This document shows, one piece after another, positions 12,909-19,198 of a stretch of 19,198 nucleotides of DNA. How positions within the stretch are numbered: position 1 is the first letter of the stretch; every line of letters begins with the position of its first letter. The stretch is from a virus (taxonomy: Duplodnaviria > Heunggongvirae > Uroviricota > Caudoviricetes). The DNA lies in the IMG/VR virus record IMGVR_UViG_2585427781_000003; one strand, written 5' to 3'. A model generated the notes under the pieces. That model made no database searches and was not told where the DNA came from. It saw only the letters and a program-made list of their open reading frames with translations. The translations under genes were made by a program, and so were the position numbers.

Positions 12909-13160
12909 TTAGTCCTGATTTTTATCCACCCTGAGTAGTTCGCGCAGAGCAAAGGCATCCCCTTTTCTGGCAAGCTTAAACAATGCCGCTCGTAACTCGG
13001 CTTCACCTTTCGCTCTGCCCTTACGGATGGCCGCATAAAAATCTGTCATTGCTTCCCGATTTTCTTTCAGTCGGTTCAGATCAACATCCAGAACGTCAGC
13101 GATTTGTTGTGCAGTCATCCGGCACGCTGCCAGAGACTCGACTTTCGAATACGGAATCAT
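12909..13160 (-). CDS. Small HTH-type DNA-binding protein (function unknown)
   Basis: 83-aa ORF; ATG at 13160 preceded by GGGGGTGA; HTH-like segment MTAQQIADVLDVD; sits immediately upstream of the terminase small subunit. Confidence 0.6.
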   Translation of the reverse strand: MIPYSKVESLAACRMTAQQIADVLDVDLNRLKENREAMTDFYAAIRKGRAKGEAELRAALFKLARKGDAFALRELLRVDKNQD

Positions 13161-14028
13161 TTGTCACCCCCATTGATATGCAGGGTGTCTTCTTCCTGTA
13201 TTTTTCGTGAAGGATTTTTACTGCAGCGTTGTTCCAGGTGACCTGATGGTGAATGCGTTTATGGCTGGCACCCATCAGTGAGATTTTTACGCACGACGGC
13301 GCATACATGACGGAGTAAAAACTTTTAACGTAGGTTCCGGAATCCAGATACAGCTCGGTCATTCCGCCGCTGTTTTTCTGCGTCTGTTTCTGCCCTAACT
13401 GGACAGCACCGATCGTCATAAACAATTCACCACAGCGACCGAGATTCGTGTACGTATTCACATCCTCGTTAATGCGCCCCATGAATGAGAACGGTCGATC
13501 AACCGAACAGATAAAGCTGTTCATTGCCTTGCGTTTCACCCACGAAGCATGGCCGCCATTGTCACCAAGAAAATCCCCGCCCTGCGACATAGCGATGGAA
13601 AGAGCAGGTATTGATTCGTAGTACGCCAGCATTTCAGAAAGGATCGCATCCAGTTTCCTTATCGGAAAATAGGCCTGGTCATAGTTGCGATCCACCCGAA
13701 ACTGGAACTCGTGATAATCATCATCGAGCTGAATGAAGTATTTACACCCGACCAGTTTTGCCAGGTCGAAACAGGCATTACGGGCGTAAAAAATTGAGCG
13801 GCGGTCACAGAAATTATCGGCTTCGTCAAAACGACTGGCGATATCGGCTTTGGAAAACACCAGCACCTGTTCACCAAATTCAGCCATGTACTGATTTCGT
13901 GTCTTATCTTCATCATCAACAACGATAAAAATTTTCCCGGTATAGCCAGCACGACGCAACGTCCGGTAAGTCAGAACTTTGTCCGGTCGCCCGTGAGTCA
14001 GAATAAAGGCGCAAAAATCATCACGCAT
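13096..14028 (-). CDS. GT-A-fold-like nucleotide-sugar transferase candidate (hypothetical)
   Basis: ATG at 14028 preceded by GAGGAGGAGGAAT and overlapping the ParB-like stop (ATGCGTGA). Pattern FILTHGRP...IFIVVDDED...YFIQLDDDY is beta-alpha-beta followed by a DxD-type acidic motif. No transmembrane segments. Function is inferred from these motifs only. Confidence 0.55.
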   Translation of the reverse strand: MRDDFCAFILTHGRPDKVLTYRTLRRAGYTGKIFIVVDDEDKTRNQYMAEFGEQVLVFSKADIASRFDEADNFCDRRSIFYARNACFDLAKLVGCKYFIQLDDDYHEFQFRVDRNYDQAYFPIRKLDAILSEMLAYYESIPALSIAMSQGGDFLGDNGGHASWVKRKAMNSFICSVDRPFSFMGRINEDVNTYTNLGRCGELFMTIGAVQLGQKQTQKNSGGMTELYLDSGTYVKSFYSVMYAPSCVKISLMGASHKRIHHQVTWNNAAVKILHEKYRKKTPCISMGVTNDSVFESRVSGSVPDDCTTNR

Positions 14029-14812
14029 ATTCCTCCTCCTCACCACCATGCATGATCTCCACCATGCGCTGCGTCATCCGGACAAATCCATTTTCAATAG
14101 CCTGCTGATAATCAATGATCACCAGCGCCGACTCCTCGAAAAAACACTGAATTTCAGAGGGGGCGTGAGCGTAATAGTCCGCAATTCTGCTGAAATTAAA
14201 CACCGTGTGACGTTCTGCCGCACACAGGAGGAATTTCTCAATATCAGGCTCAAGGGACGCCGAACGTATCCGGCTGATCAGCTCCTGAGTTTTCGTATCG
14301 TCGTACAGTTCACTGATATCCGGTTTACCGCCCGACGGCTCATAAACAGGCGTATCAATTTTCGTCGTATACGGCTCCTCCTCATTTCCTGTACCGGGCA
14401 AAACATCCGTCAACAGTTCATCAATTTCTGTCGGGATGAAGCCTGTCAGGGAGACATCAAAATCAGCATTGATTAGGTCCGACAGCTCCATCCGCAACAG
14501 ATCTTCATCCCAGCCAGCATTCATCGGCAGGCGATTATCTGCCAGGCGGTACGCCTTTTTCTGCTCATCCGTCAGGCCAGACAGAACAATGACCGGAACA
14601 GAATCCATTTTGAGCATTTCAGCCGCCATAACACGACCGTGACCCGCAATAATTTCGCCCTTTTCGTCAATCAGCACCGGATTAGTCCAGCCGAATTGCT
14701 TAATACTTTCTACCAGTTGTGCCACCTGCTCAGGGCTGTGCGTCCTGGCGTTGTGCGCATACGGTGACAATTCTTGTAATGGGCGATAGACTATCTTTAA
14801 TTTCTCGCTCAT
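14021..14812 (-). CDS. ParB-like nuclease domain protein
   Basis: 263 aa; the N-terminal ~100 aa (YRPLQELSPYAHNARTHSPEQVAQLVESIKQFGWTNPVLIDEKGEIIAGHGR) matches the ParB/sulfiredoxin-type N-domain pattern; acidic C-terminus. ATG at 14812 with an AAGG RBS. Confidence 0.78.
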   Translation of the reverse strand: MSEKLKIVYRPLQELSPYAHNARTHSPEQVAQLVESIKQFGWTNPVLIDEKGEIIAGHGRVMAAEMLKMDSVPVIVLSGLTDEQKKAYRLADNRLPMNAGWDEDLLRMELSDLINADFDVSLTGFIPTEIDELLTDVLPGTGNEEEPYTTKIDTPVYEPSGGKPDISELYDDTKTQELISRIRSASLEPDIEKFLLCAAERHTVFNFSRIADYYAHAPSEIQCFFEESALVIIDYQQAIENGFVRMTQRMVEIMHGGEEEEYA

Positions 14813-14949: not shown

Positions 14950-16407
14950 TTAGGAGCGCCAAAAAAAACCTGAAAACAATATAATAACAGGATAAATTTC
15001 AAGGCGACCAAGAATCATAGCTATGCACATTAAACATTTTGCAATGTCATTAAGCACTCCGAATGACGATGCAGTAGCCCCAAAACCTAATCCCATATTA
15101 TTAATACATGCAGCCACTGTTGCAAATGATGTAAGAAAATCATATCCCATACCATTTAACACCAGTATAAAAAACACCGTGAAGAGAGTATAAAGAAAAA
15201 AGAAACTCCATACAGACCTCATTACACGATCTGTAACTATCTTCCCTCCTACATTTACACTCAACAACGCTCTGGGATGAGAAAGCTGATTTATCTCGTG
15301 TTTGCTTTGTTTGAAAAGTATAAGAAATCGAAGTGACTTAATTCCACCACAAGTTGAACCTATACATCCCCCAAAGAAACTTGACAACAGCAAAAACACT
15401 ATCGTGTGCGTGGGCCAACTTGCATAATCCTGCGTAGCTAAACCATTATCAGTGAGCATGGAGCTGGCAAGAAAAAACGAATGAATAAAACTTCCATGCA
15501 AGTCATACATACCTATATGCCAGACCTGGAAAGAGGTAACAATGATCACCCCTAAGGCTATTAACAGAAAGAAACGAAGTTCAATATCTCTGATTAAAGG
15601 TTTTATCGTTTTCCTGCTAATAACAATATACCAAAGAGTGAAGTTGAAAGCCGATAGCAGGGAAAAAGAACCAGCCACCAGCTCAACCAAATAGTTATTA
15701 AAATATCCGATACTCTCGCTATGAGTTGAGAAACCACCAAGCGAAACTGTGGAAATCCCGTGACAAATAGCATCAAACAAAGGCATTCCTGCAAGTCTAT
15801 AACAGACAATACAAGCAATACCTAATAAAGAATAAGTTATCCACAGTGTCCGTGACGTATCGGCCAGGCGGGGAGTGAGTTTGTCATCCTTAAATGGCCC
15901 CGGCATTTCTGACTGATAAAGCTTTGCACCACCAATACCCAATAATGGCAATACAGCAACCGCCAGAACAATAACTCCTAAACCACCTATAAAATTTAAC
16001 TGTGACCGATAGTACAAATATGCCCGAGGTAATGAACTAACATCATCAATTACAGTTGCTCCTGTTGTTGTTATTCCAGAAACCCCTTCAAACAGAGCAT
16101 CAATGAACGTTAAATTAAGTTCTGAGTCAATCCATAAAGGGAATGCACTAATAACAGAAAACAAAATCCAAAACATTACAATTATAATAAACCCATCACG
16201 GGTACGTAATTGAATGCCAGATTTCTTAGTTGTATACCACGCTCCGCCACCAATGCAAAAAAATATAACGAAAGTTATAAAGAAAACGAACAGGCTTTTT
16301 TCTTTATAAAACAATGCTACAACCATTGGTGGCAACATTGAAAGACTATAGAGCCAAACCAGGAACCCACACATATGAGTAACAACTCTTACATGAGATG
16401 TATTCAT
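14950..16407 (-). CDS. trkG: TrkH/TrkG-family potassium uptake membrane protein
   Basis: 485 aa from ATG 16407 (MNTSHVRVVTHMCGFLVWLYSL...); polytopic membrane protein with repeated GxG-type selectivity-filter-like loops. The sequence matches what I recall of TrkG from the E. coli K-12 Rac prophage. Visibly AT-rich relative to its neighbours. Confidence 0.93.
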   Translation of the reverse strand: MNTSHVRVVTHMCGFLVWLYSLSMLPPMVVALFYKEKSLFVFFITFVIFFCIGGGAWYTTKKSGIQLRTRDGFIIIVMFWILFSVISAFPLWIDSELNLTFIDALFEGVSGITTTGATVIDDVSSLPRAYLYYRSQLNFIGGLGVIVLAVAVLPLLGIGGAKLYQSEMPGPFKDDKLTPRLADTSRTLWITYSLLGIACIVCYRLAGMPLFDAICHGISTVSLGGFSTHSESIGYFNNYLVELVAGSFSLLSAFNFTLWYIVISRKTIKPLIRDIELRFFLLIALGVIIVTSFQVWHIGMYDLHGSFIHSFFLASSMLTDNGLATQDYASWPTHTIVFLLLSSFFGGCIGSTCGGIKSLRFLILFKQSKHEINQLSHPRALLSVNVGGKIVTDRVMRSVWSFFFLYTLFTVFFILVLNGMGYDFLTSFATVAACINNMGLGFGATASSFGVLNDIAKCLMCIAMILGRLEIYPVIILFSGFFWRS

Positions 16408-16544
16408 ATCTAAATATTCTTTCAATTATAACCACCTTGCTGCAATATTATGATTATACTGTATAAAATTTAACTCCTCTTAGATCTTACTTCACTGTTC
16501 CTTATGAAACAATCATCAAAATGAATCATATTGTAGTTAAGATT

Positions 16545-17009
16545 TTACTTTAAACACTGCTCGGTTATGTATTGCTGAGCACCTTCAAGTTGGGCCTGCA
16601 TCATTACCAGTCGTTCCCGGAGGGTGAAATAATCCCGTTCAGCGGTGTCTGCCAGTCGGGGGGAGGCTGCATTATCCACGCCGGAGGCGGTGGTGGCTTC
16701 ACGCACTGACTGACAGACTGCTTTGATGTGCAACCGACGACGACCAGCGGCAACATCATCACGCAGAACATCATTTTCAGCTTTCGCATCAGCTAACTCC
16801 TTCGTGTATTTTGCATCGAGCGCAGCAACATCACGCTGACGCATCTGCATGTCAGTAATTGCCGCGTTCGCCAGCTTCAGTTCTCTGGCATTTTTGTCGC
16901 GCTGTTCTTTGTAGGCGATGGCGTTATCACGGTAATGATTAACACCCCATGACAGGCAGACGACGATGCAGATAACCAGAGCGGAGATAATCGCGGTTAC
17001 TCTGTTCAT
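16545..17009 (-). CDS. Rz i-spanin
   Basis: ATG at 17009 overlaps the endolysin stop (ATGA). N-terminal TM segment ([16 protein letters not shown]) followed by a coiled-coil periplasmic domain. Confidence 0.9.
16604..16789 (-). CDS. Rz1 o-spanin lipoprotein, embedded in Rz in the +1 frame
   Basis: 61 aa, [20 protein letters not shown] lipobox, proline-rich ([16 protein letters not shown]), lying entirely inside Rz. Confidence 0.9.
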
Positions 17010-17503
17010 TGCTGACCCCACAAACAGATTTCACGCTCAATCTCACGACGAGTCATGAGACCTTTCCATTGCTTACCGCCAGCATATGTCCAGCGACGTA
17101 GCTGATCACATGCGCCTTTGATATCGCCCTGGTTTATTTTGCGAAGAAGCGTCGATGTTCTGAAATTGCCAGCACCCACGTTGTAAACGAATGAGTAAAG
17201 AGCGCCGCGCGTTGTTTCCGGTATATCGACTTTGATGTACGGGTTAATTTGTCTGGCGACCGTGGCAAGGTCTTTATTCAGGAGGGCTTTGCATTCTGCT
17301 TTGGTATACGTTTTACCGAGCATGATGTCTTTTCCTGTATGCCCGTGACATACAGTCCATACACCAACAATATCTTTGTATGGTATGTAGCTGACACCTT
17401 CCAGACCATCGTTACCACTTGGGCCAGTGATTAACACTGATGCTATAGCAATTGCTCCGCCACCAATAGCAGCAGCAACGACTTTTCGTAATGATGGAGG
17501 CAT
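17006..17503 (-). CDS. SAR endolysin (T4 lysozyme-type, phage 21 R-like)
   Basis: 165 aa with a Gly/Ala-rich N-terminal signal-arrest-release segment ([20 protein letters not shown]) and catalytic E...D...T spacing ([16 protein letters not shown]). RBS GAGGTGA; start overlaps the holin stop (TAATG). Confidence 0.93.
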
Positions 17504-17718
17504 TATTCACCTCTCGCAGCCTTGCGCTTATCTTCTTTAATCTTGAAATAAAGGTTTGTCAGGTACGTCAGCAGGCCAAATACCAGACTACCCAGCACAC
17601 CGATTGCAGCCCACTGTGACGGAGTTACTCTATCGAGCAACTGTAAAAACCAGTAGCCAGCACTGCCTGCGGAGGTGCCGTAGGCAATGCCTGTTGAAAT
17701 TTTGTCCATGGATTTCAT
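17503..17718 (-). CDS. Pinholin, phage 21 S-like
   Basis: 71 aa from ATG 17718 with a dual-start MKSM motif and GGAGGTGAGGCT RBS; two TM segments. The track ORF begins at an upstream ATG that lacks an RBS. Confidence 0.92.
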
Positions 17719-17820
17719 AGCCTCACCTCCGCACGGAACGGATGGCATAGTTATTATGTGTAGGCTTTCAGACACATCAATCAGAGCCTTAATTGATATA
17801 TATGCTGGAGACGATGCAAT

Positions 17821-17844
17821 ATAAAAAGCTCGCCGTAGCGAGCT
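17821..17844 (-). terminator. Rho-independent terminator-like hairpin between lipoprotein gene 1 and the lysis cassette
   Basis: Minus strand AGCTCGC TACG GCGAGCT followed by TTTTTAT. Confidence 0.55.
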
Positions 17845-17969
17845 AATAAAATGTATTTCTCTGATATTATGTTTATTTGTATTAGCTCAGACTTGACATC
17901 ACAGGTTTCGTATATAGAACATCATCAAATCTGTCAGTTTGCTATGAATGAGATATAGTAATTGAAGAG

Positions 17970-18365
17970 CTAACCTCGCATGTCAAAGCCAGATTTCTGA
18001 AAATCTCTGTAGACTTCCGGATTGTTGAAGGCCGGAAATTTGGCTTTATGAGCTGCGGACTTTATCGCTTCGCAATAGGCTTTATCACCGTTACTGGTAG
18101 ATATTTTTAACGCCGTGCCATCCTGAGAGAATTCCATATGCAACCTGCATTTTTTCCCTTTCCAGTTATGCGGCTCATCAAGTTTGGCATTAATTGCAGC
18201 TCTGATTCCCCGCGCTTGCGCCCCCCATTCATCCTGATCATCCCAGCGTCCTGAACTGCAACTACCTGTAGCAGTAGTTTTGTGGCAATCTGAAGGGTGT
18301 AAAGGTGTGCATCCCGCAACAAAACCGACCCAAAAAGTCAACATAACGATTTTCTTTAATCCCAC
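17970..18365 (-). CDS. Lipoprotein with a TolA C-terminal-domain-like fold (paralog 1)
   Basis: GTG start at 18365 with a GAGGAG RBS; signal peptide and lipobox MGLKKIVMLTFWVGFVAGC; C-terminal region KKCRLHMEFSQDGTALKI...YCEAIKSAAHKAKFPAFNNPEVYRDFQ has the same Cys/Gly/Pro spacing as the TolA C-terminal domain. Confidence 0.8.
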   Translation of the reverse strand: MGLKKIVMLTFWVGFVAGCTPLHPSDCHKTTATGSCSSGRWDDQDEWGAQARGIRAAINAKLDEPHNWKGKKCRLHMEFSQDGTALKISTSNGDKAYCEAIKSAAHKAKFPAFNNPEVYRDFQKSGFDMRG

Positions 18366-18444
18366 TTCTTGCTCCTCAATCCATTAAAATCTCAGCAATA
18401 GTAGTTGTTACGTCCGCCACTGGCTCAGAGCTGACTATCCGCTA

Positions 18445-18473
18445 AATTTAGCTCAGTGCCGTAGCTGTGTCAG
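18445..18473 (-). promoter_or_regulatory. Candidate sigma70-type promoter with an overlapping palindrome, upstream of lipoprotein gene 1
   Basis: Minus strand CTGACA, 17-nt spacer, TAAATT; a perfect 12-bp palindrome GCTAAATTTAGC (18441-18452) overlaps the -10 element. Confidence 0.3.
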
Positions 18474-18515
18474 AACAAACCTAAGCCGAAACCGTTTATT
18501 ACAAAACAATAAATA

Positions 18516-18937
18516 TCAGGGTTTAAAATCCAGCACCCCATTTTGAAATACTTTATATACTTCCGGCGAAGGGGGGGCAGGTATATCAGCATTCTTTATC
18601 GCATTCATCGCTTCACGACATAAATCGAGGTCTCCACTTTCTCTTTTAACCTCCAGTAGAAGGCCATTCGGGGCCATATGCATTCTCAGTGTACACTCTT
18701 TTCCTGAATACTTACTCGCATCCCCGAACTGTTTTTCGATGGCGCTCTTGATTTGATGGGCATACAGACGGATATCCTCACTAACATCAGAAGTACGTTC
18801 AGATGAACTCACATACTGTGTCTCTATTGCTTTATCGGAGTAATATGATGTACGGTCATGATAATTTGTCGATACAGCATCAGTGCACCCGATAATAATC
18901 CCACTAATAATCAACGTAAGAATTGATGCGCTACGAA
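18516..18937 (-). pseudogene. Lipoprotein with a TolA C-terminal-domain-like fold (paralog 2), 5' end truncated by IS2
   Basis: Native sequence resumes inside the signal peptide (..IRSASILTLIISGIIIGC) at the IS2 junction. The first 12 codons of the track ORF (from 18974) are IS2 sequence. The C-terminal 90 aa resemble TolA domain III closely. Confidence 0.8.
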
Positions 18938-19198
18938 TGGATTTGCCCCTATATTTCCAGACACCTGTTATCACTTAATCCATTACTGGCCTGCTGCCGC
19001 AGATATTCCCGTGGCGAGCGATAACCCAGTGCACTATGCGGATGCCATTCGTTATAATGCTCGAACGCCTCTGCAAGGTTCTTTGCTGCCGTTAACCCGT
19101 CTGGTTTAGGCATGATACTGATGTAGTCACGCTTTATCGTTTTCACGAAGCTCTCTGCTATGCCGTTACTCTCCGGACTCCGCACCGCCGTGTTCTTC
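18938..19198 (-). mobile_element. IS2 insertion sequence, partial (transposase-proximal end)
   Basis: 18938-18965 TGGATTTGCCCCTATATTTCCAGACACC matches the IS2 terminal inverted repeat as I recall it; the adjacent ORF is the InsD C-terminus. Confidence 0.92.
18949..19198 (-). CDS. insD: IS2 (IS3-family) transposase OrfB/InsD, C-terminal part (5' end beyond the window)
   Basis: Track ORF ...[76 protein letters not shown] is the characteristic IS2 transposase C-terminus; the frame stays open to the window edge. Confidence 0.9.

Follow-up and report, generated by a model that had tools for sequence, protein, structure and literature searches.

The window analysed here is a stretch of 19,198 nucleotides (nt) of virus DNA (Caudoviricetes; IMG/VR record IMGVR_UViG_2585427781_000003), and it carries two adjacent minus-strand genes, P1 and P2, that each combine a lipoprotein-type signal with a single copy of TolA's C-terminal domain (domain III, TolA-III). 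P1 and P2 belong to the TolA C-terminal domain family, without being TolA orthologues. TolA is a host protein whose tip serves colicins and filamentous phages as a periplasmic handle on their way in. We propose, with slightly less than even confidence, that they are motor-less TolA-III decoys, probably tethered to the outer membrane, that intercept group A colicins and the g3p protein of filamentous phages. The positions and strand of both genes, taken from the list of open reading frames (ORFs), are those given in a preliminary description of the region, and their parts are as follows.

18516..18937, minus strand: P2, a 5′-truncated TolA-III lipoprotein gene (ORF, Pfam TolA match and TolA alignment).
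18885-18887, minus strand: lipobox Cys codon of P2.
18519-18782, minus strand: TolA-III domain of P2.
18366..18515, minus strand: P2-P1 intergenic region, with a promoter-like site, a palindrome and the Shine-Dalgarno sequence GAGGAG (18372-18377).
17970..18365, minus strand: P1, an intact TolA-III lipoprotein gene of 131 residues (ORF, Pfam, alignment to PDB sequences, predicted structure and Foldseek, substitution rates).
Residues 1-19 of P1: signal and lipobox.
Residues 20-40 of P1 (18246-18308): linker.
Residues 41-131 of P1 (17973-18245): TolA-III domain.

Profile, sequence and predicted fold agree that each ORF joins a lipoprotein signal and lipobox to one TolA C-terminal domain, as the preliminary description had proposed. 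Against Pfam family PF06519 (TolA C-terminal; gathering score 25), P1 scores 54.6 bits (E = 1.3e-14) and P2 82.4 bits (E = 2.7e-23). In comparisons with PDB sequences, residues 65-152 of P2 align without gaps to E. coli TolA 334-421 and are identical at 52 of 88 positions (59%; E = 6e-28), which bears out the near residue-for-residue match given in the preliminary description. P1 was described as more diverged with the same cysteine spacing, and this also holds: its residues 51-129 align gaplessly to TolA at 34% identity (E = 5e-9), and the cysteines C363 and C388 of TolA are both kept in P1 and P2 and are invariant in both families. AlphaFold2 (AF2) models of the two proteins reach a predicted local distance difference test score of about 90 or above in the domain and fall below 50 in the signal and linker. 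Using Foldseek, the P1 model was superposed on 3QDP with a root-mean-square deviation (rmsd) of 1.1 Å and a template modelling (TM) score of 0.92, and the P2 model on 2X9A_B, the TolA-III chain of the complex with g3p of phage IF1, with an rmsd of 0.6 Å and a TM score of 0.96. The top matches were all TolA-III structures, with TonB C-terminal domains far lower, and the predicted models have a three-stranded sheet packed on helices in the helix-strand order of TolA-III; the structural comparison on which the preliminary description had staked its proposal therefore came out in its favour for both proteins. The two genes, which it had termed 'paralogous', are not close paralogs, since P1 and P2 are 32% identical to each other. 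A recent tandem duplication is ruled out by this low identity and by the very different host ranges of the two families.

The resemblance to TolA is confined to this domain. Models of full-length TolA are matched by P1 and P2 only over the last ~80-100 positions (model positions ~265-387). Scores against NF007065 (53.7 for P1 and 107.6 for P2) lie well under its cut-off of 213, and for TIGR02794 (cut-off 59.45) P1 falls below at 47.2 while P2 rises above at 75.3 through its C-terminal part alone. Neither P1 (131 residues) nor P2 (142 residues) has the TolQR-binding membrane helix and domain II of motor-coupled TolA, and they are flanked not by the genes of a tolQRA-tolB-pal operon but by IS2 or a Q-like gene on the upstream side and by phage lysis genes downstream. 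The RefSeq name 'tolA: cell envelope integrity protein TolA' on P2 is an over-annotation, because P2 lacks the membrane helix, domain II and tol-pal operon and scores under the NF007065 cut-off. Database names of the exact sequences are all derived from homology ("TolA"), a match to PHROG 5772 is labelled 'unknown function', and the BFVD viral structure library returned no match at E ≤ 0.001. The domain assignment itself is on record in databases, and the biology is undescribed.

P1 and native P2 both show a positively charged n-region, a hydrophobic core, a lipobox (pattern [LVI][ASTVI][GAS]C) and no Asp at position +2. The P1 signal peptide, MGLKKIVMLTFWVGFVAGC, divides into the n-region MGLKK, the core IVMLTFWVGF and the lipobox VAGC, with Thr at +2. 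The native P2 signal reads MGFR-SASILTLIISGI-IIGC-T, in a full protein of 142 residues. Translation of P1 starts at a GTG six bases after GAGGAG (18372-18377), a strong Shine-Dalgarno sequence. We note that this start (18342-18365) is called differently across records, including loci L002 and L034, giving proteins of 124 (internal ATG), 131 (GTG) or 143 residues (plasmids), and that the 131-residue form alone gives a normal KK n-region. The P1 linker is nearly invariant across genera, with the pattern C-[AT]PLHPSxCHKTTAxGxCxSG (residues 20-40), although AF2 confidence over it is low; its invariant Cys-x8-Cys pair would be expected to form a small disulfide loop just after the lipid anchor. A stretch of the P1 linker, SSGRWDDQDEWG, resembles the TolB-box epitope of ColE9. 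This candidate was rejected: the counterpart of its second Trp in TolA is Y340, where helix 1 begins, its two Trp residues are spaced one position differently, and the motif is not kept in more distant family members.

The surfaces used by TolA ligands are differently preserved in the two proteins. The N1 domain of g3p and the TolB N terminus each add a strand to β3 of TolA-III, an edge that ColN reportedly also uses, and colicin A adds to β2 through L375-P380, K368, K379 and K396 (PMC7391070, PMC3365938). Comparing the g3p and TolB edge through the β3 strand only, we found that P2 keeps it (VLDFKP against PLDFKP in TolA). Among the colicin A contacts P2 retains L375, L376, K379 and K396, with the changes K368H, D377E, I378V and P380R. 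As β3 and most of the colicin A contacts are kept, P2 should mimic E. coli TolA broadly.

In the decoy mechanism that we propose, P1 and P2 would be exported and would receive their lipid at the lipobox Cys; since both lack Asp at +2, the Lol system would sort them to the inner leaflet of the outer membrane, where a folded TolA-III domain would be held on a short tether of ~20 residues (P1) or ~35-45 residues (P2). Lacking a transmembrane helix and domain II, the decoy would be uncoupled from the TolQR motor, and a captured ligand would therefore not be pulled in. As ligands we envisage the epitopes with which group A colicins and cloacins bind TolA, along with the N1 domain of g3p from filamentous phages. 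They would be bound in place of TolA, near where colicin translocation domains and g3p emerge, so that import stalls; with its ligand trapped just below the outer membrane, the lysogen or plasmid host would become tolerant. P2 would act as a broad mimic with an E. coli-like binding surface, and P1 may be a diverged, older version that travels as a single-gene mover among prophages, plasmids and chromosomes. In the intact element P2 and P1 would be part of the late transcript downstream of the Q-like gene, and what appear to be their own promoters, with the terminator before the holin gene, would permit expression in the lysogen. Conjugative plasmids expose their pili to filamentous phages, none of which is known to dispense with TolA, and the I-pilus phage IF1 also uses TolA-III, as PDB 2X9A shows. 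Overproduction of TolA-III in the periplasm, in work by Levengood-Freyermuth, Click and Webster in 1993, reportedly led to colicin tolerance, reduced Ff infection and leakiness. Complexes of colicins and g3p with TolA-III are reported to be micromolar or tighter. TolA is present at only 500-2000 copies per cell, and its affinity for TolB is weak, with a dissociation constant of 40-250 µM (PMC7066135). Given this difference in affinity, a modestly expressed decoy should compete better for invaders than for TolB.

In the window itself, P2 has been interrupted. The match with phage mEp460_ev081 and with a prophage of Shigella flexneri breaks off exactly at 18937, and the IS2 inverted repeat runs from 18938; IS2 has entered 7 nt inside P2, with its transposase in the orientation of P2. 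The resulting ORF (18516-18974) encodes the lipobox IIGC followed by Thr-Asp (Thr at +2) and the TolA domain at ORF residues 65-152. It keeps native codons 3/4 to 142 and the stop codon, and its frame stays open into IS2 as far as a GTG at 18974, for which no ribosome-binding site is obvious. The native start MGFRSASIL, found in mEp460_ev081 and in the Shigella locus (L003), is absent from this copy. Intact loci have a promoter-like site matching the consensus at 10 of 12 positions (TTGAGC-18-TATAAT, at 5363-5392 in L003) ~30 nt 5′ of the P2 ATG, and this too is lost. Because the IS2 end has replaced the promoter and first codons, P2 is probably inactive in this window, whereas P1 is intact; PGAP marks the equivalent P2 copy (L002) as a pseudogene. 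The insertion is a private event, since an 80-nt probe across the start finds intact P2 in 787 of 5,426 complete E. coli genomes and the IS2-P2 junction of the window occurs in one of them (FDAARGOS_1279, with a small length difference).

This pseudogene, together with the many truncated entries in databases, would be expected if P1 and P2 were decaying captured fragments that have no present function, a view that we consider very improbable in light of how the family evolves. Across 26 diverged homologues, the ratio of nonsynonymous to synonymous substitution (dN/dS) of P1 is 0.03-0.16 at dS 0.5-2, and P1 is under strong purifying selection. For P2 compared with a variant from a Shiga toxin (Stx) phage, dN/dS is 0.29 in the domain and 0.41 in the linker. 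Signal peptides and lipoboxes are kept across 61 diverged clusters, and decay is also hard to square with the 787 genomes in which the P2 start is intact, against one with the IS2 junction. On plasmid pO157 of EDL933 (locus L038, 6003-6434), an intact P1-type gene (WP_001453090.1) sits beside a truncated nikB pseudogene and insertion sequence debris, which suggests that the small gene was retained while the adjoining transfer gene decayed. The low dN/dS and the conserved linker lead us to regard P1 and P2 as maintained proteins and not debris, the IS2-disrupted copy of P2 excepted.

We found P1 and/or P2 DNA in 1,339 of the 5,426 complete E. coli genomes. The whole P2-P1 tandem is present in 776 of these, nearly always at 99% identity or more, and 525 of the places found in E. 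coli are plasmid-borne. In IMG/VR, 149 viral contigs encode the module, and the order P2, P1, S21-type holin was seen in 77 of the 77 loci with enough downstream DNA. One of 50,697 deposited phage genomes has the module; likewise, P1 is covered over at least 80% of its length in one of these phage records, as against 604 plasmid records. An allele of P1 that is ~88% identical occurs on more than 600 plasmids; it stands directly downstream of the relaxase gene nikB on IncI1/B/O plasmids such as pHUSEC41-1 and next to the truncated nikB on pO157. Homologues that are ~65-89% identical to P1 are found in the chromosomes of many Enterobacterales, with representatives of 28 other species. P1 is thus not phage-specific. 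DNA homology across these contexts covers the ORF and a leader of ~30-35 nt only, and P1 therefore moves as single-gene cargo that borrows local promoters. The two families differ in breadth: P2 forms 46 clusters at 90% identity, essentially in Escherichia and Shigella, and for P1 there are 370 clusters, distributed across Citrobacter, Enterobacter, Klebsiella, Raoultella, Serratia and others.

Related genes occur at other sites too. The P2 variant mentioned above is 66% identical and lies in a Stx-like prophage of E. coli JNE170426 (L039, 5001-5429) without a P1 partner, in the order Q, tRNA-Ile, tRNA-Arg, P2-variant cargo, nanS-p; in Stx phages, stxAB occupies the same slot after the Ile and Arg tRNA genes. 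Further TolA-III lipoproteins are carried by Klebsiella plasmids (86 bits with Pfam; lipoboxes LTAC and ITAC). On the 10-kb K. pneumoniae plasmid p2_020003 (L036, 1512-2245), which is 94% identical to CloDF13, a TolA-III lipoprotein gene stands in tandem with one for a signal-peptide-bearing TonB C-terminal domain protein, and the pair adjoins the cloacin-immunity-lysis operon in the slot that holds proteins K and L in CloDF13. Homology of the pair to proteins K and L was considered and dismissed, as tblastn gave no similarity and only the slot is shared. CloDF13 protein K, as a separate observation, is itself a lipoprotein, with Asp at +2. On a K. pneumoniae IncR plasmid (L037, 5217-6246), a TolA-III lipoprotein gene (35% identity to P1) directly follows a thioredoxin-like (DsbA/TraF-like) gene, whose product could oxidise the Cys pair of TolA-III. 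A profile search of 1.84 billion cluster representatives gave 586 matches. Among the best 150 of these, 79 are 100-170 residues long, 61 of them with a lipobox and not one with Asp at +2.

These carriers, namely IncI-type conjugative plasmids, pO157, the cloacin plasmid with its TonB C-terminal domain and the stx slot, fit a decoy function. We extend the proposal, more tentatively, to Enterobacterales mobile elements in general: they may carry a widespread and unrecognised class of outer-membrane-tethered TolA-III decoys, sometimes accompanied by secreted copies of the TonB C-terminal domain, that makes the host broadly tolerant, without reliance on immunity proteins, of bacteriocins that depend on Tol or Ton and of filamentous phages specific to pili. 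Such a class would account for the genes next to the relaxase of conjugative plasmids, for those on bacteriocin plasmids and pO157, and for those that fill the stx slot of lambdoid prophages.

The chromosomal copies raise the question of whether P1 and P2 instead serve the host. As an envelope-homeostasis factor, the protein would be an outer-membrane-anchored dock for endogenous TolA-III partners, such as the TolB N terminus or CpoB, that adjusts for the host how Pal is mobilised or how lipids are balanced in the outer membrane, with mobile elements acting only as carriers. In two chromosomal loci that we read closely the flanking genes are of non-phage type (DMSO-reductase and SulP genes in Enterobacter, hyc genes in Leclercia), and upstream neighbours are common to five Leclercia genomes and to four Enterobacter genomes. 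This sharing, in line with the presence of chromosomal copies in many Enterobacterales and with strong purifying selection that extends to the linker and its invariant Cys-x8-Cys, fits a host function. The synteny is one-sided, however, with a downstream flank that differs in nearly every genome; homology limited to the ORF and ~30 nt is the pattern of a mobile accessory gene, most E. coli genomes do without the gene, and its pairing with a secreted TonB C-terminal domain beside a bacteriocin operon points to the blocking of import. We therefore regard a homeostatic role as unlikely.

The surroundings of P1 and P2 bear on how they are expressed. Transcription in this region runs along the minus strand from the right end of IS2 through P2, a 150-nt spacer, P1 and a 194-nt spacer with a hairpin to the lysis cassette, and the features outside the two genes are listed below.

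18938..19198, minus strand: right end of IS2 (IS3 family), in which the 3′ part of the transposase ORF lies at 18949-19185 (rve_3 domain), terminal inverted repeat included.
17817..17844, minus strand: terminator-like hairpin AGCTCGCTACGGCGAGCT and T run in the gap between P1 and the holin gene.
16545..17718, minus strand: lysis cassette, immediately 3′ of the P1 terminator.
17503-17718, minus strand: S21-type pinholin with the dual start MKSM.
17006-17503, minus strand: SAR-type lysozyme.
16545-17021, minus strand: Rz.
16604-16789, minus strand: Rz1 lipoprotein, embedded in Rz.

The tandem was said to stand directly before a lysis cassette, and the pinholin, SAR-type lysozyme, Rz and Rz1 genes are indeed found downstream. 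The preliminary description had further suggested moron-like independent expression of P1, which is borne out in part. The hairpin (17844-17827) with its T run (to 17817) is the only terminator-like site in 17400-19198 and is kept in the intact Shigella locus, and a perfect 12-bp palindrome, GCTAAATTTAGC, unique in the window, overlaps the putative P1 -10 element at 18441-18452. The promoter itself is the weaker part: the P1 site CTGACA-17-TAAATT (18473-18445) matches the consensus at 9 of 12 positions, and the region holds no more such matches than shuffled controls do. In the Shigella locus (L003, 4750-4826), downstream of a Q-like DUF1133 gene, we also observed a 10/12 promoter-like site followed within ~30 nt by a strong terminator hairpin. 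This arrangement resembles a pR′/tR′ pair and would place P2 and P1 in a Q-antiterminated late transcript.

Expression with the late genes would suit a third alternative, in which the proteins are saboteurs of the Tol-Pal system that promote lysis or release. A tethered TolA-III domain made from the late transcript would capture the TolB N terminus, TolA could then not strip TolB from Pal, and the link between outer membrane and cell wall would weaken, aiding the spanin step, vesiculation or virion release. The genes do lie between the Q-like gene and the holin gene and in prophages of E. coli they invariably accompany the S21 holin; the β3 edge of P2 (the TolB site) is close to identical with that of TolA, and TolA-III in the periplasm is said to cause a leaky tol phenotype. 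Nevertheless, P1 is mainly found outside phages, in the plasmid records counted above and at chromosomal sites that have no lysis genes nearby. A terminator between P1 and the holin gene and a promoter-like site before each gene make up the design of a moron, the cassette already has a full set of holin, endolysin and spanin genes, and the affinity of TolA for TolB is weak. On balance we judge a role in lysis improbable.

Several points also weigh against the decoys that we favour. The colicin A contacts are mostly lost in P1 (K368E, D377K, K379S and K396H), and its β3 strand differs (GFDMRG). Both proteins are probably anchored in the outer membrane, a placement that follows from the +2 rule only, and the P1 promoter match, as noted, is at chance level. 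A decoy that also bound the TolB N terminus could damage the envelope of its own host, and the partial synteny across Leclercia and Enterobacter is compatible with a housekeeping role. Neither protein matches PADLOC-DB at E ≤ 0.1, and full-text searches of the literature found no functional study of any family member. One published lead was set aside: EDL933_2012, which rises 32-fold with ciprofloxacin and was linked to TolA by its authors, is called a tail fibre protein in the supplement, could not be mapped to a TolA-III gene and was not used.

Downstream beyond the cassette the window carries trkG, a ParB-like gene, a glycosyltransferase gene of the TET-associated glycosyltransferase (TAGT) family and terminase genes. 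From the gene content around the lysis cassette, we take the window to be part of a Rac-like lambdoid E. coli prophage. The trkG gene (14950-16425), for a TrkH-family potassium transporter, is cargo directly 3′ of Rz/Rz1, as it is in the Rac prophage of K-12; the window resembles a fuller relative of Rac. At 13096-14812, in the interval from trkG to the terminase genes, the TAGT gene (Pfam E = 8e-35) overlaps one with a ParB_N domain, and the two might constitute a module for modifying phage DNA. Scans of the window for Rfam families and tRNA genes gave no match.

The proposal that P1 and P2 are TolA-III decoys is a well-founded hypothesis and not a demonstrated mechanism. If it is true, about a quarter of sequenced E. 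coli (the 1,339 genomes with any copy) would blunt Tol-dependent colicins and filamentous phages without mutating a receptor; pO157 of O157:H7 is among the carriers, as are many resistance plasmids of the IncI type. This would add a new layer to bacteriocin and phage warfare in the gut and might explain how conjugative plasmids can bear the cost of pilus display. It would also be a practical confounder for colicin and phage therapeutics and for phage display hosts, and would provide natural, diverged TolA-III variants with which to separate the surfaces of TolA that serve TolB from those that serve parasites.

P1 and P2 can be set against several known systems. With TolA domain III itself (E. 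coli TolA 325-421; PDB 1TOL, 1S62, 2X9A and 3QDP/3QDR) they share family, fold and both cysteines, but a lipoprotein signal and short tether take the place of the N-terminal membrane helix and long helical domain II. Like the dominant-negative TolA-III fragment made in the laboratory, they would present an isolated periplasmic domain uncoupled from the motor, and by analogy that fragment offers a direct experimental precedent for a decoy effect; the fragment is artificial, overproduced and soluble, whereas P1 and P2 are natural, diverged, carried by mobile elements and, as predicted, lipid-anchored. In position they recall lambdoid morons, such as stxAB and the lc/nmpC porin genes in the Q-to-S interval and bor/lom, as they fill the same cargo slot between Q and holin with a terminator after the cargo; they differ in the cargo itself, and their promoters are putative. 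In their proposed function they are comparable to exclusion systems, including the lipoproteins Llp of T5, Cor of phi80, N15 and HK022, and TraT of F, and the g3p-mediated exclusion of Ff phages, which are likewise small envelope proteins of mobile elements that block the entry of competitors. Llp, Cor and TraT have no sequence relationship to P1 and P2, and exclusion by g3p, too, takes place at the TolA step. Llp and Cor work by masking a receptor in the outer membrane, and g3p by occupying host TolA; the role proposed for P1 and P2 would be the reverse, with a copy of the co-receptor soaking up the invader.

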